DNA of 60,721 nucleotides from Bacteroidales bacterium (GCA_027858745.1 JAQICB010000104.1:1-60721); one strand, 5' to 3'; shown: positions 2,465 to 54,416, numbered from the stretch's first letter. Notes: a model not told the origin generated them from the letters alone. Translations and numbers: made by a program.

Positions 2465-2480
2465 AATATTAAGTTTTAAG

Positions 2481-3104
2481 TTATTTTTTACCACCTTGTA
2501 GGTGCGTGAATTTTTCAAAAGTTTTTACAGACAGGTTATTATCCTCAATAAGATTTGCCAAATAAACTTCTTCGATATGCCACATAGCATCGAATGTAAC
2601 CTTATCAAGCTCCACATTTTTTATTTTTTCGATTGCCGAAGAAGCGTATTTTTTTGCAAATTCAGGTGAACGAAAACCTAATAGACCACTACAAGGGATT
2701 CCTATCCTTGTTGGTCTTATATTAAAATGATTACAATATAAACCATTATGCCCACCACGAATCATTTCGCAATAGACATCAGAATCTAATTTTGTTATTT
2801 TATCATATAATATAACATCAACATCAACCATTAAGTATGGTTCATTTTGCTCAAGGTGTACTTGGAATTTGCCAATATTGAAAAACCTATCGTCAATTAA
2901 TTCAAAATCAATAATTTCAATTTTTGCATTTATTTTGTTATGTATATACTCATAGCCTTCTTCATCAGTATATACCGTTACATCATAGTTTTTTGAATGC
3001 ACTTCAAGAGCATCATTCCAAAATTTAAATAAACTACGTTTTGAAGAAAAACCAGCGTTTCTCTTTTCTCCTCCAAACGTATTATATGTCTGTACAAGTC
3101 TCAT
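2481..3104 (-). CDS. DUF6734-like protein, putative GT-A glycosyltransferase
   Basis: Motifs VYTDxxG, GKF...QNEPYLMVDVDVI (DxD) and IEE near the C-terminus resemble DUF6734 proteins as I recall them. Confidence 0.6.
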   Translation of the reverse strand: MRLVQTYNTFGGEKRNAGFSSKRSLFKFWNDALEVHSKNYDVTVYTDEEGYEYIHNKINAKIEIIDFELIDDRFFNIGKFQVHLEQNEPYLMVDVDVILYDKITKLDSDVYCEMIRGGHNGLYCNHFNIRPTRIGIPCSGLLGFRSPEFAKKYASSAIEKIKNVELDKVTFDAMWHIEEVYLANLIEDNNLSVKTFEKFTHLQGGKK

Positions 3105-10198: not shown

Positions 10199-13100
10199 TT
10201 ATTGGTTAAGTGATAATTCATGAATTCTATAATAAACATAGTCTCCGTTTTGATCTTTTTCTCTGGAATATCTTCGTCCATTCCATTCGTAAGTATAGAA
10301 ACCAAAGCCTACTTTTTCTTTTTCGATTTCATACGTATCTTCAGGAGTGACAAAGAATTGAGAGCAGTCTTTAGAAAATAGCGTAATCGCTCTAGGTCCA
10401 CTTGAACGATATGCATAATCTATTTGATACATATTACAGAAGTGCTGTTTGTATAGATCTGGTAATTTTGGGTTAACAAATGGTTCGGGACTTCGTACAA
10501 TGATACCGAGTATCTTCTCCTGATTGGTATCGGTATTTAAGTTTCTCACAACATTGAATTCAACTGTTTCAGCAGGGGCAAGAGGACTTAAATCTAAAAC
10601 TCCCTCAATTAAACAATCAAATGGATGTGTAAATACTGAATCAAGATTTGTGTCTCCTGATTTTTGATTTTCTAAAAGATTAATAATCTTATTTTCAGTT
10701 TCTGTATTTACACTAATGTTAATATTAAATACAGCTTGGCGTGGGTTTTCTCCATTCTTATCTTTTAAGATATATGTTTCCATATGCTCTTGGAAACTCG
10801 AATAGCGAGATGTTTGGAATACATAGCGGTGTACTTGTTTTCGTACAGGAGTATTCGGATTATCTTTATTCGTATTGTAGAAAATAGCTGTATAGAGTGT
10901 GCTTGGACGTAAGAAACTAAGTGTTACTGTCGTTTGTAAAGAAGCTGGTTTTATTGGAAGACCACCATCAGCCCAACACTTCCCTTGCGCACTAATAAAG
11001 TTCGGGTGACCATACTTGTCTGGATTTCTCATTACATCCCAAGCATTAATACCATGTGGAATATTTGGTTCATCATCAGGATTCCAACCAACTACAGTTT
11101 CGGGTATGTTTTCAACTGTTACATTTGGTGGTGGTGGATTTGCTATTTCATAATCTTCAATAGGGTCTTTAACTACAACTTCAAATGTGTCGTTAATTGC
11201 AGGTAAACCACCTAGAGGTTCCCAGTTATTTAACATGTGATATACATATGGCTTTGTGTAAAATAAGTTAAGTTTGGTATCGTGATAATACAAAGGTTTC
11301 GCATTAATTATGTTACCATCGGCAAAAGGGTACGAGCGCTCATAATCAATATAATCTCTAAGTGTAGCAAGTTTATATTTTTGAAGATTGAAGTTGTCTG
11401 TTCCTGGGGCTTCAGGTTTTACATACCAGTTATCTTCGTTACTACCAACAGAAGTATTATAATCTTCGTGGAAGAAACCTACTGGGCCACCTGTTTTAAA
11501 TCCAAAATGGTATTCCCAGTGACCATTATTATTATACTTGTCATTAATAGTATAACCATCTGTTGATATTGTATCTGATACATTTAGTTTAATTCTAAAC
11601 TGAGTGTAAGGTCTCCAAATAGGTGAAAGGTTGTGTTCAATAGCACGTAAACCTTCTTGATATTCTCTTTCAACAGCTTCTTGACTTAGAATGTTTTGAT
11701 TAAAGTCATATGCTTGTTTAGACATCCATTCAATTTCATGAATAATAGTTCTATCTGGAAGTGATGCATCAATTGGTGGAATATTCAATCCTCCAGCAAC
11801 TGTATCTTTAAGGTTCTGAAGGTCCTCAATTGCTTTCCCTTTTTTCTTTTCAATACCTTCTGCTTCTTTTTTCTTCTTTTCTTTTGCATCTAAAAGAGCA
11901 TCAAGATAATCTTTTGCATCATTAGTAACATCGTCTGCATTGTTTTTGTAATTGTTCTTGCAAGTTGCAACACCAGTAGCAATAATTCCAATGCTTTCCA
12001 TATATGCATCGTATGCTTCTTGAACACGTGTAACACTTACTCCTTCAGGAACAATATCAGTTAAATTCTCAATACATATTTCAGTCTGAGTTTTTTCAGA
12101 ACTTGGGCGTATTGTTACTCCACAGTTATCGAAACGATCTTTTGCTGCATTATAAAGAGCATTAATATCTTCTATATCATCATAAATAGAATCAACCTCA
12201 GTAGTAAGGTTATCAATTGTTTGTGTAGCATTAGCAATTTGTTCATTTATTAATGTCTCATCTAGAGTGTCTCCATCATAAGAATATCCATATTCTTCTT
12301 CAAGATTCTGTTTAATAACAGCAATTTGTGCTTCTGTTGCTACTTTATCGTCTGTTTCACCTTCATAGTAAGCACGTATAAGGGCATAGAGTTCATCTAG
12401 TAACTGCTGGAAAGCTTCATGGTCAACAGTTGCAGGTTGTACCGAAACATATCTTATAGGATTTTCTGGGTCATCGTATATGATAGGAGATAAAGCTTCA
12501 TATCTTGTTTTAGTTACTTGTGATATAATTGCCCAATAGGCGCGTCCAGTTTCTTCATCTCGTCTTTTTGCATAATAGCTTATAGTTACATCTTTACTGT
12601 ATGTGAAGAGTTTTATACTTGCATATGCTGTTTCGTTAAGAAACTTGCACCAAAATTCACCTTTGCTAGTAAAAGCTAATGATTTGTCAATATTATAATT
12701 ATTAGGTTTTTCAATAATTTTACCACCAATTTTCTTAAGTCTCCAACGAATTTTTTCATGTCTGTTATGTAAACTTTCTAAAGAACCACTACTTGCATAT
12801 GCATCTGTTTCATATTTAGTAAAATTTGCATATTCGTTTTCTGGACGTATATCTGCACAGAAAATGCTTTTAGGAGTTACACCATATACTTCAGGTGTAG
12901 CCCAAGCTCGCATACCATTATCCATGTATGAAAAAGGAGATTGAGAAAGTAAACGTAAACGGTTATATTCAGCTGCGCCTTGTAATTGCCAGTGTCCTAA
13001 TTGTTGAAGATTGGCACTATTAAAATTTATAGCATCTTGTGTATTGGTTTGTAGAGGTGTAGAAACAGCTTCGTATGGATTATATGCTCTCCAGATACTT

Positions 13101-16100
13101 GAAGCGGTATCCCAATATTCTACAGAAATACCATCGATATTATATGAGTGTTTTGCTCCCACGTTTACACTTTCTGGAGGAACAGGTTCCTCATATGCTT
13201 GGAAGGTATTTCTGTTATCGCCAACACTTGCAACAGAGCCAATTCTGCTTGATACATTTGTCGGGTTAACAAATTTTCTAAACTCAATATCTATATAACT
13301 ATCGCAAGGAATGAGTTTACTAATAGTACTTCCACTAGCATTTGCTTGAATAAATTCAACATCGAATGCTTCTCCAGAAAGCATATTAATTGCTTTTACT
13401 GGGAATTCTCCAGATGGAGTATATCCAACCGGAGATACATAACTGATTACTTTACTCTTAGATTTTTCCCATTTAAACTCAACAGTAAAGTCTTTACTAA
13501 TTTTCTTGCCAAGTATTTTAAAGCCTACCGACAAATCAACATTACCCTCAATAAGTAGTGGTTTTGGTGCTTCTGCTCCAAGGTAAGTATCAAAGTATAA
13601 GTAGAAACCAAATCCACATACCGACACATCTGCATGACCACCAGTGGCAATGTATGCTCCAATTTGAAACTGTTCAAAACTAATAAAGCCCCCTGTTTCA
13701 AGATATGCGCCAACACTAGCATGTAATGAACCACCTAAATAACTGCGTTCAAATCCAAGTTCTGCTTTAGCTCCGAGTTCCATTCCAGAAGCTGAAAGCA
13801 TTAAGAATGATTCAGCTGTAATGAAATCTAATATTCTTGCGGTATTAGGTTCTTCACGAGTACCAATATTTATATACCAAGCTTTTGGGTTGTGGAAGAA
13901 AAATGCGGCTTGCATAGAAGCATATGCATCAAGCACTTTCCCTGTATCTTTAGGAACTTTAAAGCTTAGACCAAATCCTGTTTCAATTTCTTTTTTAGAA
14001 ACAGCAAGGTATGCAAAGAATGGCGGGTCTTCACTAGAAAGCCCTACACGCTCACTTAAAATTGCAGCTTGTCCTTGAAGGAAAAACACATCAGGAAGTG
14101 ACAGCATTAAGAATATTTTACTTGAAAATGCTTTACCTGAATCTGCAGCTGTAGCTAATGAAACACCAGCACCAGCAGAGAACCCGCTTAATTCTCCATC
14201 TGGACTAAACGGAGGTTTAAATTTTTGCACATGTACACCTTCTTCTGGAGCAGCTTTATAATAGTCGTACCATTCGTCTTCACTTGTTAACCCAACGGCA
14301 TCTCTTGATGCAACAAAGTGGTGTCCGAATAATCCTCTAAATCCATAAATACCCATTCCAGTTGGACCAAGTGGGATGGGAGAAGGTAGTTCTAAGCTTA
14401 AGTCTATAATAAAGGCAGGTAAATCTGGAGCAAATTTCATGTCTGCATTTGCAGCTATTTTAGCTTTTGGAAGCATTATGCCAAGTCCACCTGCATATGT
14501 TTGTACATCTATAGTTTCACCATCTCCAACATTAAAAGTTTCGCGCGAAATAGCCAACCAACCACTAATAATTATTGCTGCATCTTCGGGGCTTGCTTTG
14601 CCTGGAATTATAAGGTCGAGACTTATACTATCCATAGTTATATAACTATCGAATGGACCGCCATCTACCGTATAGCAGAATTTTATACCTGTACCGCGTG
14701 CATCTACACCACCTGGATCAACGCTTACGCCACCATCAAACCCCCAGTAGTTGTATTTGCGCATTTCGGTACCAACTTGTTTTTGTATTGAACCAAAGTG
14801 AATAGCGGTAATAAATATTTCTGCTGGGCCAAATTTTATTTTAATTCCATCTCCGAGAGGAATAGTTCCACCCTTGAGTTCTATTTTGCCATCTTGCCAA
14901 ATGCGTAGGTCTTGAATTTCGAAATTGCCACCAATAATACTTGCTACAGAAGGGTGGGTAAATGTTAAAGTACCAGACGTTTCTAAGTAATACTTATCGT
15001 CTTGTTTACCAATGGTAAGTTCTTTAAGACTGTAGTTGAAAATATCCTCGAAGCCCATAGGTACGCCAGGGTCGTTAAATGCCGAAACTTCAAAATCACC
15101 TTCAGCATCAAAGCTTGCATCTACATCGAGAACTACTGCAACTTTTTCGCCACCTTCATCTTTCTTAAATCCAGGAACAGTAAGTGTAGCACTTACATTT
15201 GTTTCGGTAAGCGCATTGCGGTCGAAGGTTAAGTCAAAAGAATTTAATCCTATAGAAACTTTTCCGAAATTAAGTGTTATAAGTGCAGGTAGGGGGTCGA
15301 TAGTAGAAACTTTTCTCATACCAACAGTTCCAGAGAAACCTCCGTTACCAATAAGTAAATTAGTACCTATAATTTGTGCATTGGCATTTGGGTCTTTACC
15401 CCAATCTTTAGGTAAGCCAATAATTGCTTCTTCTATATATACACCTTTAAAGTCATTACCATAACCAGCATCTGTTGCTTCTTGTATATTTTTATCGTCA
15501 CGTAAGTCTATTTTTGCATTTTCAAAGCCAAGAGTTAAACCAGTGTTTAGAATTTCGGAAGTTGTAAATGATATTTTAGGATCTTGGTCTAAGAAACTAA
15601 TACCTGTTTCGCTTGAAAATTCTAATGCACCTACATTAAAGCGTAATTGCGATTTTGATTCGTATTTCTCATGGTCTTTGGTATATGGAGCCCCTGTATC
15701 AATGTTTATTGGTTTAAGGTATTTTTCTGGAAATTCGAGTGCTAAATTTAATGGACCTAAAGAAGCAATTATTTGAGGCGTTAATAATTGTTTGAAAAAC
15801 TGATCAATTTTGACATTACCGATCTTAGTCTCAAATAGACTAAAAACATCTTCAATGGAACTAATGAATATACTAAGGACAATACTACTTACACTATGAT
15901 AAGGTGTAATTTGATCTATAATATCATTTAATGTTACAAATGAAGTGATTTCTGGGGCTAGTTCCCTAATTAATGGATCATTATATTTATCAACAAAGCT
16001 TTGATATGCATTTTGACTATCTTCAAATAATAAAATAGCAGTTTCTAATAAATTTTCTTCCCTAATAGATGTTATTTTTAGAAGTGTCGGAAAATAATTT

Positions 16101-16447
16101 TCAATACTCCCAGCCCAATTTGAAATGTCAAAGCCTTTTACATACTTTAGGATTGGAATTTTGTAACTTAAACTTGCTCCTATCTCAAATTTATTTCCTT
16201 CTTCCCCTGGGTTAATAAGTAAATCAACACCATCGAATATCTTAATTCTAGCTTCTTTGTATGATATAAGTGTCAGTTTATAGAATCTAGAGTCTCCTTC
16301 TAAGGAAGTCTCAATAAATAAGTCTTTATAAAAAAACTTTTCAATTATCGATTCTAATTTATTCCTAATAGGGTTTAGTAATTTTGGTAATTTGTCTACT
16401 TCTACCAAAGTAGAAAGGTTTGGGTAAAATATGGGATTTTTTGCCAT
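10199..16447 (-). CDS. 2082-aa hypothetical protein: Gly/aromatic beta-rich N-half (DUF6603-like) with an internal coiled coil
   Basis: Long ORF with no signal peptide; IPLGPTGMGIYGFRGLFG and WYINIGT..PN.A motifs recall DUF6603-type proteins; heptad-rich helical segment at about 11800-12420. Confidence 0.7.
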   Translation of the reverse strand: MAKNPIFYPNLSTLVEVDKLPKLLNPIRNKLESIIEKFFYKDLFIETSLEGDSRFYKLTLISYKEARIKIFDGVDLLINPGEEGNKFEIGASLSYKIPILKYVKGFDISNWAGSIENYFPTLLKITSIREENLLETAILLFEDSQNAYQSFVDKYNDPLIRELAPEITSFVTLNDIIDQITPYHSVSSIVLSIFISSIEDVFSLFETKIGNVKIDQFFKQLLTPQIIASLGPLNLALEFPEKYLKPINIDTGAPYTKDHEKYESKSQLRFNVGALEFSSETGISFLDQDPKISFTTSEILNTGLTLGFENAKIDLRDDKNIQEATDAGYGNDFKGVYIEEAIIGLPKDWGKDPNANAQIIGTNLLIGNGGFSGTVGMRKVSTIDPLPALITLNFGKVSIGLNSFDLTFDRNALTETNVSATLTVPGFKKDEGGEKVAVVLDVDASFDAEGDFEVSAFNDPGVPMGFEDIFNYSLKELTIGKQDDKYYLETSGTLTFTHPSVASIIGGNFEIQDLRIWQDGKIELKGGTIPLGDGIKIKFGPAEIFITAIHFGSIQKQVGTEMRKYNYWGFDGGVSVDPGGVDARGTGIKFCYTVDGGPFDSYITMDSISLDLIIPGKASPEDAAIIISGWLAISRETFNVGDGETIDVQTYAGGLGIMLPKAKIAANADMKFAPDLPAFIIDLSLELPSPIPLGPTGMGIYGFRGLFGHHFVASRDAVGLTSEDEWYDYYKAAPEEGVHVQKFKPPFSPDGELSGFSAGAGVSLATAADSGKAFSSKIFLMLSLPDVFFLQGQAAILSERVGLSSEDPPFFAYLAVSKKEIETGFGLSFKVPKDTGKVLDAYASMQAAFFFHNPKAWYINIGTREEPNTARILDFITAESFLMLSASGMELGAKAELGFERSYLGGSLHASVGAYLETGGFISFEQFQIGAYIATGGHADVSVCGFGFYLYFDTYLGAEAPKPLLIEGNVDLSVGFKILGKKISKDFTVEFKWEKSKSKVISYVSPVGYTPSGEFPVKAINMLSGEAFDVEFIQANASGSTISKLIPCDSYIDIEFRKFVNPTNVSSRIGSVASVGDNRNTFQAYEEPVPPESVNVGAKHSYNIDGISVEYWDTASSIWRAYNPYEAVSTPLQTNTQDAINFNSANLQQLGHWQLQGAAEYNRLRLLSQSPFSYMDNGMRAWATPEVYGVTPKSIFCADIRPENEYANFTKYETDAYASSGSLESLHNRHEKIRWRLKKIGGKIIEKPNNYNIDKSLAFTSKGEFWCKFLNETAYASIKLFTYSKDVTISYYAKRRDEETGRAYWAIISQVTKTRYEALSPIIYDDPENPIRYVSVQPATVDHEAFQQLLDELYALIRAYYEGETDDKVATEAQIAVIKQNLEEEYGYSYDGDTLDETLINEQIANATQTIDNLTTEVDSIYDDIEDINALYNAAKDRFDNCGVTIRPSSEKTQTEICIENLTDIVPEGVSVTRVQEAYDAYMESIGIIATGVATCKNNYKNNADDVTNDAKDYLDALLDAKEKKKKEAEGIEKKKGKAIEDLQNLKDTVAGGLNIPPIDASLPDRTIIHEIEWMSKQAYDFNQNILSQEAVEREYQEGLRAIEHNLSPIWRPYTQFRIKLNVSDTISTDGYTINDKYNNNGHWEYHFGFKTGGPVGFFHEDYNTSVGSNEDNWYVKPEAPGTDNFNLQKYKLATLRDYIDYERSYPFADGNIINAKPLYYHDTKLNLFYTKPYVYHMLNNWEPLGGLPAINDTFEVVVKDPIEDYEIANPPPPNVTVENIPETVVGWNPDDEPNIPHGINAWDVMRNPDKYGHPNFISAQGKCWADGGLPIKPASLQTTVTLSFLRPSTLYTAIFYNTNKDNPNTPVRKQVHRYVFQTSRYSSFQEHMETYILKDKNGENPRQAVFNINISVNTETENKIINLLENQKSGDTNLDSVFTHPFDCLIEGVLDLSPLAPAETVEFNVVRNLNTDTNQEKILGIIVRSPEPFVNPKLPDLYKQHFCNMYQIDYAYRSSGPRAITLFSKDCSQFFVTPEDTYEIEKEKVGFGFYTYEWNGRRYSREKDQNGDYVYYRIHELSLNQ

Positions 16448-16469: not shown

Positions 16470-17864
16470 CTATTTTAAATAATTTTCTTCCCAATATTCC
16501 CAATTCATAAATGAAGGATATATATCTTCGTCAAAGGAAAAAATATACCCTAAAGACGTAGGGTTATTGTGTATTATCTTACTACTTCCAATTAAACAAT
16601 CTTGTGTTTTTCCAGGAGAATCACTATCAGAAATTACTATTGAGAATCCTAACTTACTTTTATTCTCTATTTTGAAATTCTTTTCACCAATTAACTCTGC
16701 AATGTCCCTCATATTTATAGATGCATTTACATCATAACCTTTGGGACCAGAGCTTGTATTTATCCTTGTGCTCTGTAAGGGAATCTCTTTATCTTTATTA
16801 ATCATAAGAGGTAAAAGGTCTTTATTATTTGACAATGGTATAATAATTTGGACTAACGATGAATCGCCATAATTTCTAAGAGTTTTGTATGATTGCCCAT
16901 CTTCTCTTTTCAGGGTTTGTAGTATAGAATTAAAGTCAATCCATAATTCTAAATGATCACCATTAATTATAGGTTCTGTACCATTATTGAAAAATACCAA
17001 ATCATCGGTTACTGATACATTTAGAATTAAGTTTTGTTCAGACCAAGAGACGTTAGCGCTAAAACTTATATCTGTACTGTCTTTCCAATTCTCAGGCTTA
17101 TAGAAAATATGTTTTTTCTGATTAATCAAGTTTTGATAATCATCAAGGTTGCTTTTTTCTGTTCTAGGCGCAAAAAATATCACACCTTTTCTTACGTACT
17201 TTTCTTCTGGTCTCCCAGAATCATTAGTAAATTCATTATTGGGGTTATTAGGATCTCTAAAGCAATATTTTTCAATAAATTCCGATTTTTCGAAATCAAT
17301 AAGTAATAAATATTCTTCCGCCAAAGTCATATTAAAACGGCTTATTTTATACCAATTAAGTTGAAAATTGTTACCGTTATACTTAAATTTTAACTTTCGA
17401 TTAAACCCTTTATACCTACCATATGACTCATTTGTTTCAACTTCTCCATTTTGAAACTTAATAGTACGAATATTATTATGTAATGAATTTTCTGGTGTTT
17501 TAGATGTTCTATACTTTAATATTTCTCTATAATCTGAACTGTTCTTATCATATACAACAACAAACTGTTCTAAATTAGAAGCTAAAATAACATCATTAGG
17601 TTTATTTTTTATTTCAATCCAATAATTGACAATAATGTCTTCTTTACCGTCAAATGTTAGGTCTATCTTCTTTATAAGTTCATGTTTCAAATGTATACTT
17701 GAAGCATAGTTACTTCCCAGTTGACTCTGAAAATATTCAAATATTATATGTTCAGTAGAATCATTATATGTTTCTTGCATTCCAATGTTATGTCCATTGG
17801 AGTACAGTTGTGTTAATACCACAATTAATACTAAAAATATTTTTTTATTTTTTAATAAAATCAT
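16470..17864 (-). CDS. Exported protein with C-terminal CBM9/DOMON-like domain; candidate immunity protein
   Basis: Signal peptide (KNKKIFLVLIVVL); VSWSEQNLILNVSVTDD..GDHLELWID..GFSIVISDSD CBM9-like pattern; start overlaps the upstream stop (ATGA, 17861-17864). Confidence 0.6.
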   Translation of the reverse strand: MILLKNKKIFLVLIVVLTQLYSNGHNIGMQETYNDSTEHIIFEYFQSQLGSNYASSIHLKHELIKKIDLTFDGKEDIIVNYWIEIKNKPNDVILASNLEQFVVVYDKNSSDYREILKYRTSKTPENSLHNNIRTIKFQNGEVETNESYGRYKGFNRKLKFKYNGNNFQLNWYKISRFNMTLAEEYLLLIDFEKSEFIEKYCFRDPNNPNNEFTNDSGRPEEKYVRKGVIFFAPRTEKSNLDDYQNLINQKKHIFYKPENWKDSTDISFSANVSWSEQNLILNVSVTDDLVFFNNGTEPIINGDHLELWIDFNSILQTLKREDGQSYKTLRNYGDSSLVQIIIPLSNNKDLLPLMINKDKEIPLQSTRINTSSGPKGYDVNASINMRDIAELIGEKNFKIENKSKLGFSIVISDSDSPGKTQDCLIGSSKIIHNNPTSLGYIFSFDEDIYPSFMNWEYWEENYLK

Positions 17865-20800
17865 AATTCACATTCTTGAGGTAAATTATCCCAGATATCT
17901 AAGACACTAGCAACATAATCAGTTATAGGGGGGGTCGCATCAGTTGGTCCTGCATTGTGCTTATATGCAACAGAAGCCATCCTTTGCCTATTTGTTGTTA
18001 AATTTAATTGACTAACATCATTAATGGACTTTAAAACACTGGCAACAGTAGCGTTGCGCCCCCTATTATCGGTAAGTATATTTCTTAATGCCTGACCTTG
18101 TTCTTGATTTAGTACAGCACTAGTAATGAAACTTTGACGAACCTCATTGAATAAATTTCCTGAAAATAAATTTGATAAGTTAATTTCTCTAAACATAAGT
18201 TCTTCAAAATTAGTCTGATAAGTAGGATTTGTATCGTTCAAGAAGTTATCTTTCATAGCATCATTTGTTAGGCCTGTCGATCCATTAATAACAGTTCTTA
18301 TGTTTCTGATTAGTTTGGCCGTTTTAAAAATTCTATCTATAAAATCCTCTTCTAATAGTAATACACGTGTAAATCTTTCGCGGTTTGAATAATTAGGCTG
18401 ATTAGGAAATGCTTGATTGCCTCCAAGAGTGTCATTAACCATGGCACTCTTAAAGTCTTCAACTAATTGGTCAAAATCCGCATTATTACTTTGTTCAGCA
18501 ATAGTGCTTGTCATCCCCAATGTATTATTACTGTCAGTATTATAGCTTGTAACTGTTTGTCCGGCCAACGGAAAATTTATAATATAATTATAGTATGCTC
18601 TAAATTCAGCTAACAAGTTGTTTTCAATATTGTCTAGCATATTATCATCAATTCCATATTGAAGTTCTACATCGTTATGAAATGCATTATTAAATTGTAG
18701 CGATCCTACAATATTTGCGCCAATAACTTGGCTTGCTCCAAATGAAGCCGGAATACCACTAGGTGATGTAAATGCTGCCGGAATTTCACCATCGCCAGCA
18801 AATTGCCCTGTTTCATGCTCAACAATAGCAGTGATGTTTTTACACTGTTCCTGTGTAATAACCAAATTATCCACTAAAAGTGATGAAAGGTCATTTTTAG
18901 AATTTGGGTTAATAACAGTGCTCGTTCTATATGACGGAATTTGGAATCTATACCTAGATTCCCCTAATGCACTTATTTGTTCATCAACGTATACTCCAAC
19001 TTCACTTTGAAAATTACGAATAGCCGCTCTAAATCGATATAAAGCCCCATTATCTACATTATTAACATTTGCCGGTGGATATTCATTTATATAATCTTCA
19101 ACATTATAATATCCAAGTTCTACCAACCTTTTCATGTATATAATTACATTACCTCTTAAATTATGAGTACCACTACCATTGTAATTTCCGACACTTCCAT
19201 CTTGTTCATGATTCATATCTCTTATAGGAGCAATATACGGTACTCGTAAAATTCTATGGGTTTCATCATTTGGTTTTACAATACCATTTTGTTCCATACC
19301 TCTTATGGATTTAAAATGATTGATTGCATTTATAGTTTCTTCAATAACATTATCACCTATAGTTTGGTTATTTGCTTCAACCTGCTCCTCTAAATAGTCT
19401 ACCTCACTTAAATATTGTAATTCGAATAGCCTATCTTGTATAGTTCGAACATCAGTTCCGAGATTATTTCCATCTGTGCCTACAGAATCTGTAATAGTAA
19501 ACCAATTACGATTAAACCTGAATGGGTGATTAAATCTTTTAAGTTCACGACTATCTACATCCGCGGTACCAAGAGTATTTGCATTATTATATCTGAATAT
19601 TGTTTCTTCTGCTCTAAACTGGTCAAATGTTCCACCTAACTGATTAAAATTGAAATTCTTTATTGCTGCAATAAGGTTATTTAAAGCTATTGGATTATTA
19701 GCTCTGTTTTCTTCAGTATCTTCTAAGTAACCTAAATACATTAAACGATCTCTCACAGCAGTATGATCTGCCGCGGCATTTCCACCTCCATTGACATCAC
19801 CAACATTTCCGTCAAGTTCAACATCTCCTACTTCAGAAGTTATAGTCACATTTTCTCCTAATTCTTCTCTTATTATAGCTCTTGTTGGTGCTTGATTTAA
19901 GAAACTTAATGGAACGGAATCTATACCAATTTCTGTTAGTTTTATACCCATTGCCATATGCGTAAAGTCAGCTAATGCAATAATAGTTTCTATGATATCT
20001 GTTACATTTTCAACTTGAGTATTTGATTCCGAATCTTGCAGTTCCTCTGCCGGTATAGGGAACCCTAACTGTATTAATCTATCTTGAATCGCCCTAACCT
20101 CACTTTGAATATTGCCACCTGCACCATATTCCAAGCCTACTGTTTGAGTTAAAACGATATTATCTTCAGGACTGTCTGTAGCTTCAATCGGTATATCTCC
20201 TGTTGTATGAATATTTCCTATTGAAGATAACATTAACGTAGAGTCAATTTCTTCGTAGGTCTCATTAGTTAAGCTCCATCCTCTTAGTGTTATTCTATTC
20301 CTAGTTACTTGTTCACCTTCATCTGTTTGCTCTAAGTCTTCAGTTCGTAATCCCATAAAAACATTGTAGTTAGGGGCAAAATTGGTGGTCTTCAATGTTT
20401 CTAAAGCTAAATATTGTGCCCTAGTAAAAACAACAGCATAGAAGTCATCTAGATTAGGGTCTGAAAAACTAACCTGACCACCATTGGGAGCATACTTAAA
20501 TACAGTTCTTGTTGTGGAAGTTCCTGTAATATTTAAAGTATTCTCCGTTAGTGCGTAAGATTGATATCTTTCTCCAAGAATCTCTAAAAACTGTTTGTCC
20601 GTTTTTATTACTTCATCTGAAAGGTTTAGTTTAAGGACTCCATTTTGTACACTTTCAGTCTCACCATATTTTTTCTGGTATAATGGAATAGCAAATAAAG
20701 TAACCAGTTCGTTAGTTAATGAATAGCCTATTTTACCAACAAATATTTCGTTTTTCAAGTTTCGCAAATCGACAAAAGCTTCTGCATGGTAAACAACAGT

Positions 20801-22276
20801 GCCAATACTACCTACTTCGTCCTCAAAAGGTATATCAAAACTAAATGGTAAAAATATGTTATCTAATTCCGTTTCTTCACTTATCGAAAAACCCACCTTA
20901 GGGTAAGGTTTAATACTTTTTTCTCTAAGGTATCTTAGTTTTATATGTGAAGCTAAGGTTGAAGGTGTATTGTTTAGGTCTTCTATATTCAGAATACCCA
21001 ATGAAATATTATTCCATTTTTTATTGATTTTATCTAAATCGCCTGTTTTAGGTTCTAGAAATTTTTCACCCTCAATTAATTTGTCCGGAAAACTATTAAA
21101 TGTTATCGCTTGTGAATAAAAAAGTAATGGGGATTGATCTTCATCCTCTAATGGTAGTGACAATATAATCTTATTCTTACTCGTCGTATTTGTTCCAGAA
21201 AAATCGCTTGCCTTAATACAAAAATAAGGCCAACCTGTTTCATAGAAATTTTTATCTTGTTCACCTTGTTCATTAAGGTCAACTTTAATCGAATTGTTTA
21301 GATGAGTTCCATAGTTCAAATAATAATTAAATGACAAATTATGCTCATTTCTTATATCTATATATACTTTGTTATAATTCAGAAACCTTCTAAAATCTAA
21401 ATCCTCACCATAAAGTAATTTATTATATAATTCTAAGCCTTTTAGATTGTCTGTTTTTAGTAAATCAGCATTTTTCTTTGTTTTTAATACAGTATTATAA
21501 AATGAACCAAAGTAAGCCGCAGGATCAATATAATTAAGAACTTCTTCTTTGCTATGCCAATGTTTAAATTCTTGAATAATTGTTGGATTTTCTGGTAATT
21601 TATCTACTTCAATAATATGATCTAAACTTCTTACAATCTCAAGAGTTGGTTCATATGATATGTTTTCAATAACTATTTCTAAACCAAAAGAGTTAGGATC
21701 AAATTCACCTATTTCCCATCCTCTTTTAACAACAGGTAACATGAAATTTTCATCAATTCGGTTAAAAATTTTTGACAATTTATCAGTATTATAAAGTAAA
21801 TATGGATCATCAAAATCCAAAGGAATGTCACTATCATCAATTTCTCGTAGGTGTAACCCTAAAGCTTCGATTCCAGGACTTAAATCTTTTTCATTTGTAG
21901 CGTTATAAATCTCCTGTGATTTCCATATAGTTGTTGTCAAATCATTAGTTGCTTTAGCAGCTACGATATCTCCATTTATCAATGATTCCTTTTTTACTCC
22001 TCTATAAATAAAATACTTTATAGGCATTTCAAAAGTCTCAGAGTGCTCAATAGGTTTAATAATTAAATTCAATAGGTTATCATCTACCTTTTGGGCAAAA
22101 AGAATTCCACTTGTAATCGCATAAGCTTTGGGGTTCACGTTAAGGTCTACACTTGTATGTAAGCTGCAAGCCCTAAAGAAATCTTTTGTGTCACCTGCTA
22201 GTGCAGGAATAGAGCCAAATTGCTTATCTTCTTGTTTTAATAAGTCGTAGTTTGTGAAAAAATGAAATTTTGCCAT
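17861..22276 (-). CDS. 1471-aa multidomain protein: unknown N-terminal ~700 aa, four peptidoglycan-binding repeats, C-terminal lysozyme/lytic-transglycosylase-like domain
   Basis: Four repeats of SVG..G.N...(D/E)V..IQ.RL..LGY...AI..F (about 18945-20155); SLT-like motifs AIVEHETG, SFGASQV, AYKHNAGP, DYVASVL. Confidence 0.75.
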   Translation of the reverse strand: MAKFHFFTNYDLLKQEDKQFGSIPALAGDTKDFFRACSLHTSVDLNVNPKAYAITSGILFAQKVDDNLLNLIIKPIEHSETFEMPIKYFIYRGVKKESLINGDIVAAKATNDLTTTIWKSQEIYNATNEKDLSPGIEALGLHLREIDDSDIPLDFDDPYLLYNTDKLSKIFNRIDENFMLPVVKRGWEIGEFDPNSFGLEIVIENISYEPTLEIVRSLDHIIEVDKLPENPTIIQEFKHWHSKEEVLNYIDPAAYFGSFYNTVLKTKKNADLLKTDNLKGLELYNKLLYGEDLDFRRFLNYNKVYIDIRNEHNLSFNYYLNYGTHLNNSIKVDLNEQGEQDKNFYETGWPYFCIKASDFSGTNTTSKNKIILSLPLEDEDQSPLLFYSQAITFNSFPDKLIEGEKFLEPKTGDLDKINKKWNNISLGILNIEDLNNTPSTLASHIKLRYLREKSIKPYPKVGFSISEETELDNIFLPFSFDIPFEDEVGSIGTVVYHAEAFVDLRNLKNEIFVGKIGYSLTNELVTLFAIPLYQKKYGETESVQNGVLKLNLSDEVIKTDKQFLEILGERYQSYALTENTLNITGTSTTRTVFKYAPNGGQVSFSDPNLDDFYAVVFTRAQYLALETLKTTNFAPNYNVFMGLRTEDLEQTDEGEQVTRNRITLRGWSLTNETYEEIDSTLMLSSIGNIHTTGDIPIEATDSPEDNIVLTQTVGLEYGAGGNIQSEVRAIQDRLIQLGFPIPAEELQDSESNTQVENVTDIIETIIALADFTHMAMGIKLTEIGIDSVPLSFLNQAPTRAIIREELGENVTITSEVGDVELDGNVGDVNGGGNAAADHTAVRDRLMYLGYLEDTEENRANNPIALNNLIAAIKNFNFNQLGGTFDQFRAEETIFRYNNANTLGTADVDSRELKRFNHPFRFNRNWFTITDSVGTDGNNLGTDVRTIQDRLFELQYLSEVDYLEEQVEANNQTIGDNVIEETINAINHFKSIRGMEQNGIVKPNDETHRILRVPYIAPIRDMNHEQDGSVGNYNGSGTHNLRGNVIIYMKRLVELGYYNVEDYINEYPPANVNNVDNGALYRFRAAIRNFQSEVGVYVDEQISALGESRYRFQIPSYRTSTVINPNSKNDLSSLLVDNLVITQEQCKNITAIVEHETGQFAGDGEIPAAFTSPSGIPASFGASQVIGANIVGSLQFNNAFHNDVELQYGIDDNMLDNIENNLLAEFRAYYNYIINFPLAGQTVTSYNTDSNNTLGMTSTIAEQSNNADFDQLVEDFKSAMVNDTLGGNQAFPNQPNYSNRERFTRVLLLEEDFIDRIFKTAKLIRNIRTVINGSTGLTNDAMKDNFLNDTNPTYQTNFEELMFREINLSNLFSGNLFNEVRQSFITSAVLNQEQGQALRNILTDNRGRNATVASVLKSINDVSQLNLTTNRQRMASVAYKHNAGPTDATPPITDYVASVLDIWDNLPQECEL

Positions 22277-22340: not shown

Positions 22341-22835
22341 TTAAATTTTATTCTGCATATCTGCAATCATTTTATGCTTGTTTGCACTGCCTTGAGAAGA
22401 CCCAAAATAGTAGCTATAAATTTGCGTTAAAATAGCACTGAGTACACCCAGTATATATAGCACAATGTCTTTTACACTTTGGTCGAAAACATCTTTTTTA
22501 AATATTACAAAATAAAATAGAGTAAAGGCAATTGCTGTTGTTGCAAGTGCAAGGATAGGAGATACGTTTTTTGCGAGTTTTGAAGCATGTTCGCTTGTTT
22601 GTACAGCTGTTCCAAGTTTGCGAGCACTATCAACATCTTGATAATACAATTGCTTTTCTTCAACCGTAAGCTTTTGCATTTCTAATTGGTAGTTTTGCTC
22701 TGATTTTTCTAACTCATTATTGAGTTGCAGTTTTTCTTCTTTAGTAGTTGTTACATTGTCTACCACTTTTCCTACAGAATCTATAAGGTCTGAAGCTTCT
22801 GAAGAAAATATTTTTGCTAGTATGTTTGCTGCCAT
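22341..22835 (-). CDS. Holin (GTA_holin_3TM-like)
   Basis: N-terminal IDSVGKVVDNVTTTKEEK, short coiled coil, DVDSAR, two hydrophobic helices and the YYFGSSQGS signature; near a muramidase gene. Confidence 0.8.
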   Translation of the reverse strand: MAANILAKIFSSEASDLIDSVGKVVDNVTTTKEEKLQLNNELEKSEQNYQLEMQKLTVEEKQLYYQDVDSARKLGTAVQTSEHASKLAKNVSPILALATTAIAFTLFYFVIFKKDVFDQSVKDIVLYILGVLSAILTQIYSYYFGSSQGSANKHKMIADMQNKI

Positions 22836-23425: not shown

Positions 23426-23956
23426 CTATTCTCCAATAGCTCTTCGTACCCACCCATAAAAGTATTTTCTACTTTTAGAACGGTTTTTAACTATATGTAT
23501 ATAGCGACTAATTTTTGCGAGAGTAAATTTTGCAATAAATAGCTCTTGGTTATACCCATTAATAGCAGCTATAGATTTTGGTCCAATAATGCCATCGGCT
23601 GTTGCTCCAACAACCATTTGAGCAAGTGAAGCACTCGTTTTTGCTCCAGCGTTAACAGCAAAGTCGAAAATAGAGGTTGCAATATCTTGGTCGGTAATGT
23701 CGTCACCTTTTACTCTATCCCAAAAATTACCTTCATAGAAAGATTTAATCATTTCTTGCAACTCAGAGTCTCCGTCCAAATTTTTGGGGAAACTAGATTT
23801 TTGTTTGAGTAAATCCACATTTGTCCAACCTTCCCATTTCGGGAAGTACTTACGAGTTACACCTTTGTAGGTCTCACCTCCTGGATCGTCGGGATCGTTT
23901 ACATAACCACCTTCATTTACAAGTACGTGATTGTATGCTAATGTATAATCAGCCAT
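23426..23956 (-). CDS. Glycoside hydrolase family 108 muramidase (endolysin; TtsA/ZliS-like) with PG_binding_3-like C-terminus
   Basis: EGGYVNDPDDPGGETYKGVT catalytic motif, FDFAVNAG, ADGIIGPKS, KYFYGWVRR; no signal peptide. Confidence 0.92.
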   Translation of the reverse strand: MADYTLAYNHVLVNEGGYVNDPDDPGGETYKGVTRKYFPKWEGWTNVDLLKQKSSFPKNLDGDSELQEMIKSFYEGNFWDRVKGDDITDQDIATSIFDFAVNAGAKTSASLAQMVVGATADGIIGPKSIAAINGYNQELFIAKFTLAKISRYIHIVKNRSKSRKYFYGWVRRAIGE

Positions 23957-24805: not shown

Positions 24806-25597
24806 ATGAGTGTTTCGGAATATATTAAACAGTTACTATCACAGGAGGTGTATTCATTTTCATTAGATGAAGTTCGCTCCGAAATAGGTAAAGCAGAACA
24901 ACCATTAAAGAAAGAATTAGAACGCATAGTAGAAAAAGGAGAAATAGTGAATCTTCGCAAGGGATTTTATTTAATAATAACCCCAAGGTACTCTTCGGTA
25001 AAGAAGCTTCCAATTCAACTGTATTGTGAAAAGCTATTTGAATATTTAGCTAGAAACTATTATATAGGTTTATTTACAGCAGCAAAGTTTCATGGAGCAA
25101 GTCACCAACAAGTACAACGAGATTATATTATTACAGAAACGCCAAAGTTTAATAATATTACAAAAAGCAATATTTATATTAAATTTTTTACTTCTAGTAA
25201 TTGGAGCGAAAAGAATATTCAGTTAAAAAAATCAGATGCAGGAATCTATAAAATTTCAAGTCCAGCTTTAACTATAGTCGATTTAATTCATTATCAAACA
25301 AAATTAGGCGGAATAAATAGAATGTTCGCAACAATAGAGGAGCTAACTGAAGAGGTGACTCTTTCTGACTTAGAAGAATTGTTAGCTTGGTATTCGAATA
25401 AAAGTACGCTACAAAGGTTTGGTTTCCTGTTGGAACAACTAGAGTTGAGAAAAGAATTACAGAATATGATCTACAATAAATTAAATACAGAAAAGTACTT
25501 TCCTGTATTACTATCTCCAAAAACAGAAAAAAAGGCAGGAGCTGTAAAAAATAAATGGAAAGTAGATGTTAATGTGAAATTAGAAAGTGATTTATGA
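24806..25597 (+). CDS. abiEi: Type IV toxin-antitoxin antitoxin, AbiEi family
   Basis: N-terminal wHTH (LRKGFYLI), YYIGLFTAAKFHGASHQ, SSPALTIVDL, QRFGFLLE; overlaps the downstream toxin by ATGA. Confidence 0.88.
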   Translation: MSVSEYIKQLLSQEVYSFSLDEVRSEIGKAEQPLKKELERIVEKGEIVNLRKGFYLIITPRYSSVKKLPIQLYCEKLFEYLARNYYIGLFTAAKFHGASHQQVQRDYIITETPKFNNITKSNIYIKFFTSSNWSEKNIQLKKSDAGIYKISSPALTIVDLIHYQTKLGGINRMFATIEELTEEVTLSDLEELLAWYSNKSTLQRFGFLLEQLELRKELQNMIYNKLNTEKYFPVLLSPKTEKKAGAVKNKWKVDVNVKLESDL

Positions 25598-26385
25598 TAC
25601 CCAAACCTTATATAGCAAAGTGGCAGAAATATGCTCCTTGGAAAGAATTTTCTCAAGTGGAACAAGATCTAATTATTTCAAGAGCACTCGTTGAAATATT
25701 TTCAGATGAATTTTTGAGGGAAAATCTAGCATTTAGAGGAGGGACGGCTTTACATAAATTATATTTGAATCCAGCTCCCCGATACTCTGAAGACATTGAT
25801 TTAGTACAAGTCAAGCCTGGTCCCATTAAACCAATAATGAAACGAATTGGTGAGGTTGTTACATTTTTTGAAGAAAAAAGAACGACACAAGTCCGTGGGC
25901 ATGGAGCAAAAGCTTTATACCGTTTTACTTCGGAGTACGAAGAAATTAGAATGCGATTGAAATTAGAAATTAACTGCAAGGAGCATTTCAATGTATTAGA
26001 TTGGGTTGATTTTCCTTTTAAAATTGAAAGTGAATGGTTTTCGGGAGAAGCTCAAATTAAGACATATAGCATTAATGAACTATTGGGAACGAAACTACGA
26101 GCATTATATCAAAGAAGTAAAGGGAGAGATTTGTTCGATTTAGATTATGCTCGATTACATTTAGATCTTGATATTGAGCAGATAATTCAGTGCTTTAAAG
26201 AATATACACAGTTTGCAACAGGAAAACGTCCGCCAAGTAAGAAGGAGTTTTTACTAAATATAGAAGAAAAAGAAAAAAGTCCAGAATTTACAGGGGATAT
26301 GGAAGCCCTTTTGCGACCAGAAATAAGGTATAACCAAAGTGAAGCCTTTGAATGGTTGAAAACAGAATTAATAGAACAGATATAA
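25594..26385 (+). CDS. abiEii: Nucleotidyltransferase toxin, AbiEii/AbiGii family
   Basis: VEQDLIIS, LAFRGGTALHKLY, RYSEDIDL, KLRALYQRSKGRDLFDL motifs. Confidence 0.92.
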   Translation: MIPKPYIAKWQKYAPWKEFSQVEQDLIISRALVEIFSDEFLRENLAFRGGTALHKLYLNPAPRYSEDIDLVQVKPGPIKPIMKRIGEVVTFFEEKRTTQVRGHGAKALYRFTSEYEEIRMRLKLEINCKEHFNVLDWVDFPFKIESEWFSGEAQIKTYSINELLGTKLRALYQRSKGRDLFDLDYARLHLDLDIEQIIQCFKEYTQFATGKRPPSKKEFLLNIEEKEKSPEFTGDMEALLRPEIRYNQSEAFEWLKTELIEQI

Positions 26386-26762: not shown

Positions 26763-28424
26763 ATGACTAACTTATCCTTATTTCAACAGTTTGCGCCAGA
26801 AGTTCCCAAAGAGTTTAAAGAAGGAAACAATGCCGTTATTTATACAAGAGTATCATCAGCAGACCAAGAAAATAATACAAGCCTGAGTTCACAGAAAAAG
26901 CATTGTGATATTTTTGCTGCCAAAAGAGGATTGAATATTATTGGTTATTTTGGAGGTACATACGAATCTGCAAAAACAGATGATCGAAAAGAGTTTAACA
27001 GAATGTTAACTTTTGTGAAGCGTTCAAAAAACATCAATTATGTTATCGTCTATTCCTATGAACGTTTTTCTCGATCAGGCATTAATGGGGCATCCATAGC
27101 CGATGATTTGCTTAAAAAATATGGTGTAATCACCCTAGCAATTACACAAGAACTTGACCCGACAACACCTTCTGGTTCATTTCAACAGAAAATTCTGTTT
27201 CTTTTTGGACAAATGGATAATGAGCTAAGACGAGATAAAGTAGTAACAGGAATGAAAGAACTCCTAATTAAAGGCCATTGGGTATGGGCTGCACCACGAG
27301 GATATACAGACCTGAATAAAGGAAAGGCAACAGATAGAAAATTAGTTGTTAATAAAGAGGGTAAGATATTAAAAAAAGCATTTGAATGGAAAGCGTATAA
27401 GCAAATACCAAATGCAGAAATATCAAGAAAACTAAAAACACTTGGAGTTAATATATCAGAGAAAAGATTACACAGCCTGTTTTCAAATCCTTTTTATTGT
27501 GGTTTAATAACAAGTAAAATGATACCTGGTCAGGTAATAGAGGGTAGACACGAAGCTTTAATTTCCCGAGATTTGTTTTTACAAGTAAACGATGTTCGTA
27601 AAGAGAAAAGAGTACATGGTTTTGTTCATAATAAAGATAATGAAAACCTTCCTTTAAAAGTATTTACCAAATGTGAAAAGTGTGGTAATCCAATGACTGG
27701 TTACTTGGTTAAACAGAAAGGATTGTATTACTATAAGTGTAGGACAAAAGGATGTAGGGTAAACAAAAGTGCTAAAGCAATGCATGAGATGTTTCAGAAT
27801 TTAGTATCAGTATTTCATATTGACAAAGAAGAGCAGGAGATTATCAAAGTTGTTTTATCCGAACAAATGAATGTTTTCTTTACATCTAAAATAGAAGAAG
27901 CAAAAGTACTAAAAGCACAAAGAAGTGAAAAGCAAAAGAAACTTGATGCTATTGAGGAACGGTTTGTTCTTGGAGAAATAGACAGTTCTTTATTTAATAA
28001 GTTTAAGCCTAAATTTGAGAAAGATTTACATGAAATTGAACAAGAACTAAATGCTACAGGGAATTATAGTTCGAACCTTGATAAAGCAATGAGTTTTGTA
28101 ACTAAAATGAGTTCTAATTTATTGAATATGTGGGAGTCTCTAAATATTGAAAGTAAGAAAGTATTTCAAAACTTGCTATTCCCTGAAGGAATTTACTATA
28201 ATCATGAAAATAACGAAGTTCGAACCCCTCGTGTAAATTCATTTTTCTCATTAATCCCAGAACTGTCAAGGTCTGCAGGTGGACATAAAAAAAGGGATTT
28301 TATCTATAGCGATAAAACCCCCTCTTTGGTGATCCCATCAGGATTCGAACCTGAGACCCTCTCCTTAGAAGGGAGATGCTCTATCCAGCTGAGCTATGGG
28401 ACCCCTTATTTTTTGCAAATATAG
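26763..28424 (+). CDS. Large serine recombinase (integrase)
   Basis: YTRVSS catalytic serine, VYSYERFSR, APRGY, NPFYCG..GRHEALIS recombinase domain, CEKCG..YYKC..KGC zinc ribbon, coiled coil. Confidence 0.93.
   Translation: MTNLSLFQQFAPEVPKEFKEGNNAVIYTRVSSADQENNTSLSSQKKHCDIFAAKRGLNIIGYFGGTYESAKTDDRKEFNRMLTFVKRSKNINYVIVYSYERFSRSGINGASIADDLLKKYGVITLAITQELDPTTPSGSFQQKILFLFGQMDNELRRDKVVTGMKELLIKGHWVWAAPRGYTDLNKGKATDRKLVVNKEGKILKKAFEWKAYKQIPNAEISRKLKTLGVNISEKRLHSLFSNPFYCGLITSKMIPGQVIEGRHEALISRDLFLQVNDVRKEKRVHGFVHNKDNENLPLKVFTKCEKCGNPMTGYLVKQKGLYYYKCRTKGCRVNKSAKAMHEMFQNLVSVFHIDKEEQEIIKVVLSEQMNVFFTSKIEEAKVLKAQRSEKQKKLDAIEERFVLGEIDSSLFNKFKPKFEKDLHEIEQELNATGNYSSNLDKAMSFVTKMSSNLLNMWESLNIESKKVFQNLLFPEGIYYNHENNEVRTPRVNSFFSLIPELSRSAGGHKKRDFIYSDKTPSLVIPSGFEPETLSLEGRCSIQLSYGTPYFLQI
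28287..28322 (-). terminator. Intrinsic terminator downstream of tRNA-Arg
   Basis: Minus strand GGGTTTTATC-GCTATA-GATAAAATCCC hairpin followed by a T run, starting a few nt after the tRNA CCA. Confidence 0.7.
28327..28403 (-). tRNA. tRNA-Arg(TCT)
   Basis: GGTCCCATAGCTCAGCTGGATAGAGCATCTCCCTTCTAAGGAGAGGGTCTCAGGTTCGAATCCTGATGGGATCACCA: 77 nt cloverleaf, anticodon loop CTTCTAA, GTTCGAA T-loop, encoded CCA. Confidence 0.97.
28416..28423 (-). promoter_or_regulatory. -7 promoter element of tRNA-Arg
   Basis: TATATTTG on the minus strand, 12 nt upstream of the tRNA 5' end. Confidence 0.55.
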
Positions 28425-54221: not shown

Positions 54222-54416
54222 ATGAAATTCGTCATTGTAGATAATATATGTTTTAAATATATATTGTTAATAAAAAACACCCTTTTTTAAGTAACTAATA
54301 GTCATATAATTTGCGTATATACATATAGATGTGTATTTTTACGTATATTTTAATAAAAAGAGAGAGGATATACAGGAAAATACCCCCGTGTATTGTTATT
54401 ATATAAAAAGGGAGCT

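Follow-up and report, generated by a model that had tools for sequence, protein, structure and literature searches.

Evolved spike effectors of the type VI secretion system (T6SS), such as VgrG-3 of V. cholerae with its partner TsiV3, carry peptidoglycan-binding and lysozyme-like parts at the C-terminus and are matched by a periplasmic immunity protein. Pesticin and colicin M are colicin-type bacteriocins that likewise attack the cell wall. Polymorphic toxin systems are treated by Zhang et al. 2012 (PMC3482391), and type 10 secretion (PMC10847048 and PMC13284979) offers a precedent for large toxins that lack a secretion signal. The locus described here lies in a Bacteroidota genome, on a 60,721-nt contig that was analysed in its entirety and is referred to below as the window; its cassette genes are on the minus strand, as are all window features given below unless a plus strand is stated. 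At its centre are P0001, a protein of 1471 amino acids (aa; 17861..22276) made of a conserved N-terminal module, repeats and an orphan C-terminal domain, and the following gene, which encodes P0002 (464 aa; 16470..17864), an exported candidate partner and immunity candidate. We lean towards placing P0001 in a family of polymorphic effector proteins that are directed at the cell envelope and have not been described before.

An earlier, sequence-only reading of this DNA had proposed that P0001 joins a conserved N-terminus to an exchangeable C-terminus and partner gene, and this holds at the level of the family. A check had been set beforehand: a search with residues 1-700 only, followed by a catalogue of C-terminal domains and downstream genes. 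The search recovers a large family with 18 unrelated kinds of C-terminal extension. In an exhaustive phmmer search, these residues match 826 clusters (at 50% identity) at E<=0.001, of which 232 reach E<=1e-30, and the ten family members that were looked up are named only "hypothetical" or DUF6402. The architecture was examined in 158 family proteins, 150 from this search and 8 from another one: 91 consist of the module alone, 8 are partial, and 52 continue into a C-terminal extension. A related N-terminal region of the S8-subtilase type is present in 20 of the 158, and 13 of those 20 are also C-extended. The 18 kinds are BLAST clusters of the 52 extensions, that of P0001 being a singleton. On a FastTree tree of 151 modules, the extension labels require 28 changes, the minimum being 18, and several extension types are polyphyletic; the five modules nearest to that of P0001 all stand alone. 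The number of clusters and the scatter of extension types over the module tree therefore indicate that the C-terminus is exchangeable.

Pfam labels for the extensions were sought in 60 family proteins and in the fetched loci described below, and the majority of extensions receive none. Those that do include a phosphoesterase of the phospholipase-C type (P0003, 1.8e-70; P0022, 4.3e-68), M23 (P0101 and P0128), DUF6402 (P0131 and locus L009) and PG_binding_1 (P0025 and P0039), as well as a weak M74 match, a weak lipase-like match and a C15-like domain. As judged from these sequence matches, predicted cell-wall-binding modules recur in a second extension type, that of P0025 and P0039. The extension of these two proteins is about 1000 aa long, and inspection by eye shows in it a glycine-rich beta region besides strings that resemble SH3b and LysM.

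The other part of the check concerned the genes that follow the module gene. Of 400 genomes sampled across the phylum, 5 contain the module, as do 19 of 400 across the class; G565, one of these 19, contributes nothing further. In all, 20 loci were fetched from 17 genomes, the window makes 21, and the 13 loci with an extended member, again including the window, form the co-variation set. In partly related loci, extension cluster A is followed by downstream cluster c4 in four of four cases, all with lipoprotein-type N-termini, and extension cluster B, which is weakly lipase-like, by downstream cluster c3 in three of three. Five singleton extensions, that of P0001 among them, pair with five singleton partners of 122-507 aa, four of which have signal-like N-termini or N-termini with multiple transmembrane segments, the fifth (L061) only when read from an internal start. 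The spacing between extension gene and partner gene ranges from an overlap to 9 nt. The downstream gene tracks the extension type, and its usual products are lipoproteins and exported or membrane proteins, in line with the exchangeable cassette that had been predicted. Stand-alone modules are followed by proteins of 677-1272 aa with variable ends and, after those, by small immunity-type genes of the SUKH (L013), MORN (L011 and L058) and leucine-rich repeat (LRR; L059) types.

In the window, the stop codon of P0001 overlaps the start codon of P0002 as ATGA, and P0002 begins with a basic stretch followed by one hydrophobic segment (residues 2-20; by eye and hydropathy). The open reading frames, their overlap and a signal-like N-terminus, all reported by the sequence-only reading, are thus confirmed. 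Residues 252-427 of P0002 (16584..17111) form a CBM9-like domain (Pfam CBM9_1, E 6.4e-6, 26.6 bits against a cut-off of 23.4). Its relatives are found at the level of domains only, as weak matches to exported proteins of about 450 aa in 10 of 400 genomes, none of them module carriers. An uncontrolled complex prediction for P0001 residues 1125-1471 with P0002 residues 24-464 gives a score of 0.00, which speaks neither for nor against the pairing. The periplasmic immunity role that had been assigned to this gene is a positional inference which P0002 itself does not support: the protein is an orphan, is larger than one would expect of an immunity protein and has a weak CBM9-like domain. Because of the position of the gene and of the pattern seen across the family, P0002 may still be the exported, cognate and protective partner of a toxin domain in P0001.

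The CBM9-like domain also bears on another explanation, in which the genes form an ordinary secreted or surface-located set for the processing of cell walls or polysaccharides, serving nutrition, predation or wall remodelling, and P0002 is a carbohydrate-binding accessory rather than an immunity protein. Such a set would agree with the proteins secreted by the type IX secretion system (T9SS) that flank several loci (the 500-aa protein of the window and genes in L009, L060, L062 and L066) and with the S8 protease fusions common in the family. However, the cassette is patchy and island-borne, being found in 19 of the 400 class genomes and in none of three genomes of the same genus (85-96% complete); moreover, extension and partner gene co-vary, and immunity-type genes of the SUKH and MORN types occur in stand-alone loci. 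An ordinary processing set is accordingly quite unlikely, and the effector family remains the preferred reading.

The N-terminal ~700 aa of P0001, in which no recognisable enzyme motif had been seen, indeed match nothing in Pfam (M23 included), NCBIfam, PHROGs or PADLOC, but they form a conserved multi-domain module. It spans residues 1-690 (20207..22276) according to phmmer and AlphaFold2, with an hmmsearch envelope of 1-689, and AlphaFold2 models it with a pLDDT of 89 and a pTM of 0.92 from a 59-member alignment. When this model is compared with 48,161 chains using VIA-align, residues 1-~300 (21377..22276) match M23/LytM-like domains, with a large insertion. The best match is LysTt72 (8s3m; Z 10.8, root-mean-square deviation 4.0, 191 residues aligned), 9gy1 and 3tuf both reach Z 9.0, and at least 23 of the 26 top-ranked matches are M23/LytM proteins by title, including SpoIIQ, EnvC, PrgK and phi29 gp13, aligned to the same ~300 residues. 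Residues 301-451 (20924..21376) resemble an Ig/CnaB-like beta-sandwich, with weak matches (Z 4-5) to pilin, CnaB and CBM domains. The model thus presents the module as an M23/LytM-like domain followed by beta-sandwich domains. Foldseek finds nothing in the PDB for the module at E<=0.001, a profile of the module finds nothing among PDB sequences, and a search of the ESM Atlas with residues 1-700 points to one M23 cluster (0.89) besides clusters without a name, as a lead only.

The M23-like domain of the module seems to be degenerate at its metal site. With a register set by the order of the motifs rather than by structural superposition, 52 of 59 members retain the zinc-ligand position H40, 2 of 59 have the Asp of HxxxD (most others showing S, G or A there), and the HxH position of M23 reads F-G-[FIL]-E. 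Because of the rarity of the Asp and the replacement of HxH, the canonical M23 zinc site is probably absent from the module. The N-terminus, proposed earlier as a loading or delivery domain, is more than a loading tag: 91 of 158 members consist of the module alone, it carries an M23/LytM-like domain itself, and the search for a delivery machine found none.

Beyond the module, residues 712-1115 of P0001 (18932..20143) consist of four repeats of ~100 residues, which start near residues 727, 840, 943 and 1044 and share 8 invariant columns. The four repeats noticed earlier are therefore real, but their identity as peptidoglycan-binding domains is marginal: the Pfam model PG_binding_1 (PF01471) matches residues 701-1099 taken alone with 26.5 bits (cut-off 23, E 7.4e-6), the whole of P0001 with 19.1 bits and single repeats with 12.7-12.8 bits (whole-genome scan). 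When a profile built from all four is run against the PDB, no peptidoglycan-binding domain turns up.

The remaining residues 1116-1471 (17864..18931) form an orphan region in which short strings like those of soluble lytic transglycosylases (SLT) appear in order: EHET at 1153, GASQ at 1180, HNAG at 1440 and YVASV at 1454. The strings, their order and the insertion between the second and third (260 residues between GASQ and HNAG, given earlier as ~250 aa) stand as described, but the call of a lytic transglycosylase finds no profile support. Pfam gives no SLT match in residues 1100-1471 even at E<=10, a six-frame search of the genome with the SLT model PF01464 detects 3 genes, none in the window, and hhalign of the region against 25 SLT domains yields a probability of 0.35% and an E-value of 0.17. 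In shuffled sequences, the ordered set of motifs recurs in 3 of 5000 with a medium pattern and in 320 of 5000 with a loose one, the pattern having been chosen post hoc and failing at canonical spacing.

Nor does the C-terminal region have a relative in the collections searched. A word-index search with the last 372 residues finds no homologue (none at near lengths, P0001 only at longer ones), no relative is detected in 400 Bacteroidota genomes or, at E<=10, among 157 family proteins, and PDB sequences give a single chance match at E 0.72. Single-sequence AlphaFold2 returns a pLDDT of 34.6 and no usable fold, and the ESM Atlas, queried with residues 1100-1471, returns PG_binding_1, muramidase and SLT clusters at 0.83-0.90, again as leads only. 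The C-terminal domain would be unique, helical and directed at the cell wall; it might be lysozyme- or SLT-like, a view that we would put slightly on the doubtful side.

P0001 and P0002 belong to an array of 12 co-directional minus-strand genes with gaps of -38 to 77 nt. The array starts with a GH108 muramidase carrying a PG_binding_3 domain (23426..23956; Pfam 8e-24 and 2.7e-11; PHROG endolysin 8.7e-37), followed by genes for 70-aa and 91-aa proteins and by a gene for a 164-aa holin-like protein (22341..22835; phrog_1544 2.7e-16; phrog_3427 holin 6.9e-8). The latter has two C-terminal hydrophobic helices (segments 91-113 and 121-139), and its gene lies 64 nt upstream of P0001. Downstream of P0002 come P0160, a giant protein of 2082 aa (10199..16447), and a 1733-aa protein (4991..10192) that has no match in Pfam, PHROGs, NCBIfam, PADLOC or PDB sequences. 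They are followed by a 619-aa protein (3106..4965) whose N-terminus matches PHROGs weakly (phrog_29238, 2.2e-11; minor tail protein, 0.005) and is possibly of tail-fibre type. Neither the 1733-aa nor the 619-aa protein is linked to any protein of the other fetched loci. The array continues with a 207-aa DUF6734 protein and a 500-aa protein that combines BspA-type LRR, BACON and a T9SS sorting domain (1016..2518; Pfam), and ends with a 258-aa protein. In L060, a T9SS-sorted relative of the 500-aa protein (8762-9442) is encoded immediately upstream of the module. A scan for terminators and promoters gave a chance-level signal.

On the other side of the lysis-type genes, an AbiEi/AbiEii pair forming a complete type IV toxin-antitoxin system (24806..26385, plus strand; PADLOC 2.7e-99 and 3.7e-118) separates them from a large serine recombinase (26763..28424, plus strand; Pfam Resolvase and Recombinase) that marks the border of an island. 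The end of the recombinase reading frame overlaps, on the opposite strand, a gene for tRNA-Arg(TCT) (28327..28403; ARAGORN), the likely integration site, beyond which housekeeping genes are found. The GC content is 0.326 in the left 28.4 kb versus 0.368 in the remainder of the window, and that of the P0002 gene (0.281) is the lowest in the island. Based on the tRNA-Arg/recombinase border, the GC contrast and the absence of the module family from the genomes of the same genus, the array sits in an integrated island of at least 28 kb, with tRNA-Arg as the likely attachment site. The 119 nt that open the window recur without a difference at the beginning of three other contigs in this assembly (C160, C162 and C165) and constitute a multi-copy repeat; because the contig ends in this repeat, the left border of the island is lost. 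Far from the cassette and unrelated to it, a 2006-aa protein (54393-60413, plus strand), in which Ig_7 (CHU_C-associated) and G8 domains are combined, is probably a surface protein of the T9SS type.

Such surroundings raise the possibility of a prophage remnant, in which P0001 would be a virion-associated cell-wall hydrolase (a tail lysin or ejection protein) and the downstream giants would be other virion proteins beside a phage lysis cassette. The GH108 endolysin and holin-like genes directly upstream of P0001, the serine recombinase at a tRNA gene and the PHROG matches of the 619-aa protein speak for it, as do the fold matches of the module to the phi29 gp13 tail enzyme (Z 8.2) and to a cyanophage A4 pre-ejectosome protein (Z 7.8), and the DUF3164 and phage-fibre repeats present in L012. 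However, PHROGs contain no match to P0001, P0002, P0160 or the 1733-aa protein, tblastn finds nothing in 50,697 phage records, a single query finds no relative in IMG/VR, and BFVD holds no fold match to the whole module, the TM score being at most 0.15. In addition, many cassettes are flanked by housekeeping genes (RsmB, RecX, GlgE, GNAT) and by no phage genes, which makes a phage-structural role less favoured, and the exported partner genes co-vary with the extension. A prophage origin is, on this evidence, unlikely. Plasmid records contain no match either.

The giant P0160 connects the window to other module loci. It is a long-form relative of the DUF6603 giants: phmmer aligns it to a 2033-aa protein of L010 at 6.9e-177, and jackhmmer joins proteins of 9 further loci. 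A giant of this DUF6603-type cluster, c1, follows in 10 of the 13 extended loci, P0160 being its representative in the window, and shorter members of the cluster match the Pfam DUF6603 model at 1e-100 to 1e-128. DUF6603 giants also occur, beside other giants, in genomes that lack the module, and the module may for this reason be one of several partners of a larger system. In the module-free loci L071 and L074, two more conserved giants come after the DUF6603 protein, the first from a family of ~1000-1090 aa also present in L066 and the second (1635-1799 aa) related to a 2469-aa protein of L014; they hint at a larger, multi-giant system. Giants of another kind, ~1750 aa long and composed of DUF7379, an LCAT-type lipase, a CHAT protease and TPR-S, adjoin the module gene in L009 (3946-9297, minus strand) and L061 (3994-9243, plus strand). 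A full-text literature search returned no paper for DUF6603, DUF6402, PF27118, PF20248, PF19940, DUF7379 or LysTt72, and since no paper appears under the relevant family names, the module-DUF6603 cassette is regarded as undescribed within the literature searched.

Defence systems, too, typically pair a conserved core with variable effector domains, and the array could be read as an intracellular conflict or anti-phage system in which the module acts as a sensor or scaffold, the variable C-terminus as a suicide effector and the giants as accessory proteins. The AbiEi/AbiEii pair lies only 850 nt away in the same island, the giant next to the module gene in L009 and L061 combines CHAT, TPR-S and lipase domains, and the family proteins carry no secretion signal. 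On the other hand, the core proteins have no PADLOC match, and the labelled effector domains target peptidoglycan or lipids and therefore need access to sites outside the cytoplasm. Cell-wall-binding modules, partner genes that encode lipoproteins or exported proteins, and the LytM-like fold of the module are equally at odds with an intracellular system, which we hold to be improbable.

If P0001 is an envelope-directed effector, it has to reach its target. The module is not tied to any known secretion route in Pfam, NCBIfam or PHROGs. A Sec-type N-terminus is absent from the family, a crude scan finding a hydrophobic start in 1 of 158 members, and P0001 has no hydrophobic segment at all. The T6SS markers PF04965 (gp25) and PF05943 (TssC), the only two tried, are found in none of five module-bearing genomes, G000 included. 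In 4 of the 21 loci, the three genes that precede the module gene include a lysin gene, each time of another, unrelated family: GH108 in the window, Amidase_2 in L011, CHAP in L012 and M15_4 in L061 (Pfam). Given that neither a secretion signal nor an injection machine was found, release in the window would most likely occur through the upstream GH108 muramidase and holin-like genes.

A model can be drawn from these elements. The exchangeable part of P0001 would comprise the four peptidoglycan-binding-like repeats and the unique, helical, cell-wall-acting domain, and exported P0002 would protect against this cognate C-terminus. The module, together with P0160, would help the toxin to leave the producer or to cross the wall of the target, and release would depend on the co-directional GH108 and holin-like genes, in a way that resembles colicin lysis genes or type 10 secretion. 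A wider proposal can be made more tentatively, and with less confidence than the assignment of P0001 to an effector family: the LytM-like module and the DUF6603 giant might be the core of an undescribed route of toxin export or delivery, independent of known secretion systems. The module would be the carrier of exchangeable domains that attack the envelope (lipase, phospholipase, M23, wall-binding/lysozyme-like), and each of these would have an exported immunity gene of its own; the route would exist in Bacteroidota and probably in other phyla, and some islands would release their toxin through a captured muramidase-holin pair.

Several observations weigh against this interpretation. Most members of the family (91 of 158) have no extension, from which it follows that the module has a role of its own. 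The C-terminal 356 residues of P0001 have neither a homologue nor a profile match, so that a toxic or enzymatic activity of the C-terminus is hypothetical. As for the partner, P0002 has no relative beside any other module gene, and a length of 464 aa with a weak CBM9-like domain is atypical for immunity proteins. The co-variation itself calls for caution, since the loci that share an extension cluster are related to one another, and two even come from the same genome: the counts of 4/4 and 3/3 are not independent and overstate the independence of the evidence, and three of four c3 partners have no signal-like N-terminus as called. No delivery machinery was identified, and a lysin is nearby in 4 of 21 loci only. 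Finally, the association with DUF6603 is imperfect: the Pfam DUF6603 model does not directly match P0160 or this genome, DUF6603 proteins are also encoded by 4 genomes in which no module was detected, and 3 of the 13 extended loci have no DUF6603 giant within 20 kb.

What makes the family worth pursuing is its size (826 clusters) and lack of annotation, combined with the genetic signature of interbacterial toxins outside known delivery systems. If the interpretation is correct, the known systems of bacterial warfare would be joined by a new trafficking module, by DUF6603 as its new conserved partner, and by many uncharacterised envelope-targeting domains with their matching immunity proteins. 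The family would also provide a testable case for the exit of very large, signal-less proteins from Bacteroidota cells.

The comparison with known systems shows partial likenesses to each. At the level of single domains, residues 1-~300 of P0001 share the fold of the M23/LytM proteins, including the degenerate EnvC, NlpD and SpoIIQ as well as phi29 gp13, but the module, as read by motif order, fails to conserve two of the three canonical zinc ligands, and no Pfam M23 match is obtained. The short strings of the C-terminus resemble the E-S, GLMQ and AYNxG motifs of SLT/GH23 enzymes in the same order, whereas P0001 lacks a profile match and has 260 residues between motifs 2 and 3. The evolved T6SS spike effectors provide a closer analogy of design, with an N-terminal part of structural size (~650-700 aa) that often stands alone, a wall-degrading C-terminal extension in some cases only, and an exported protein encoded by the neighbouring gene; the family, however, has no VgrG, gp27 or gp5 match in Pfam, and gp25-like proteins and TssC are absent from 5/5 module genomes. 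Colicins and type 10 secretion share with the window a signal-less toxin, an exported immunity candidate, and muramidase and holin-like genes co-directional with P0001, but there is no sequence relation, the accessory proteins are giants, and a lysin is nearby in just those 4 of 21 loci. From the polymorphic toxin systems, the cassette differs in that its module matches no known trafficking domain in Pfam, NCBIfam or PHROGs, that most module members have no toxin domain, that no linked secretion system was found, and that a DUF6603 giant is the conserved neighbour. With these same systems it shares a conserved N-terminus, diverse and recombining C-termini and, in tight linkage downstream, a gene that varies along with the C-terminus.

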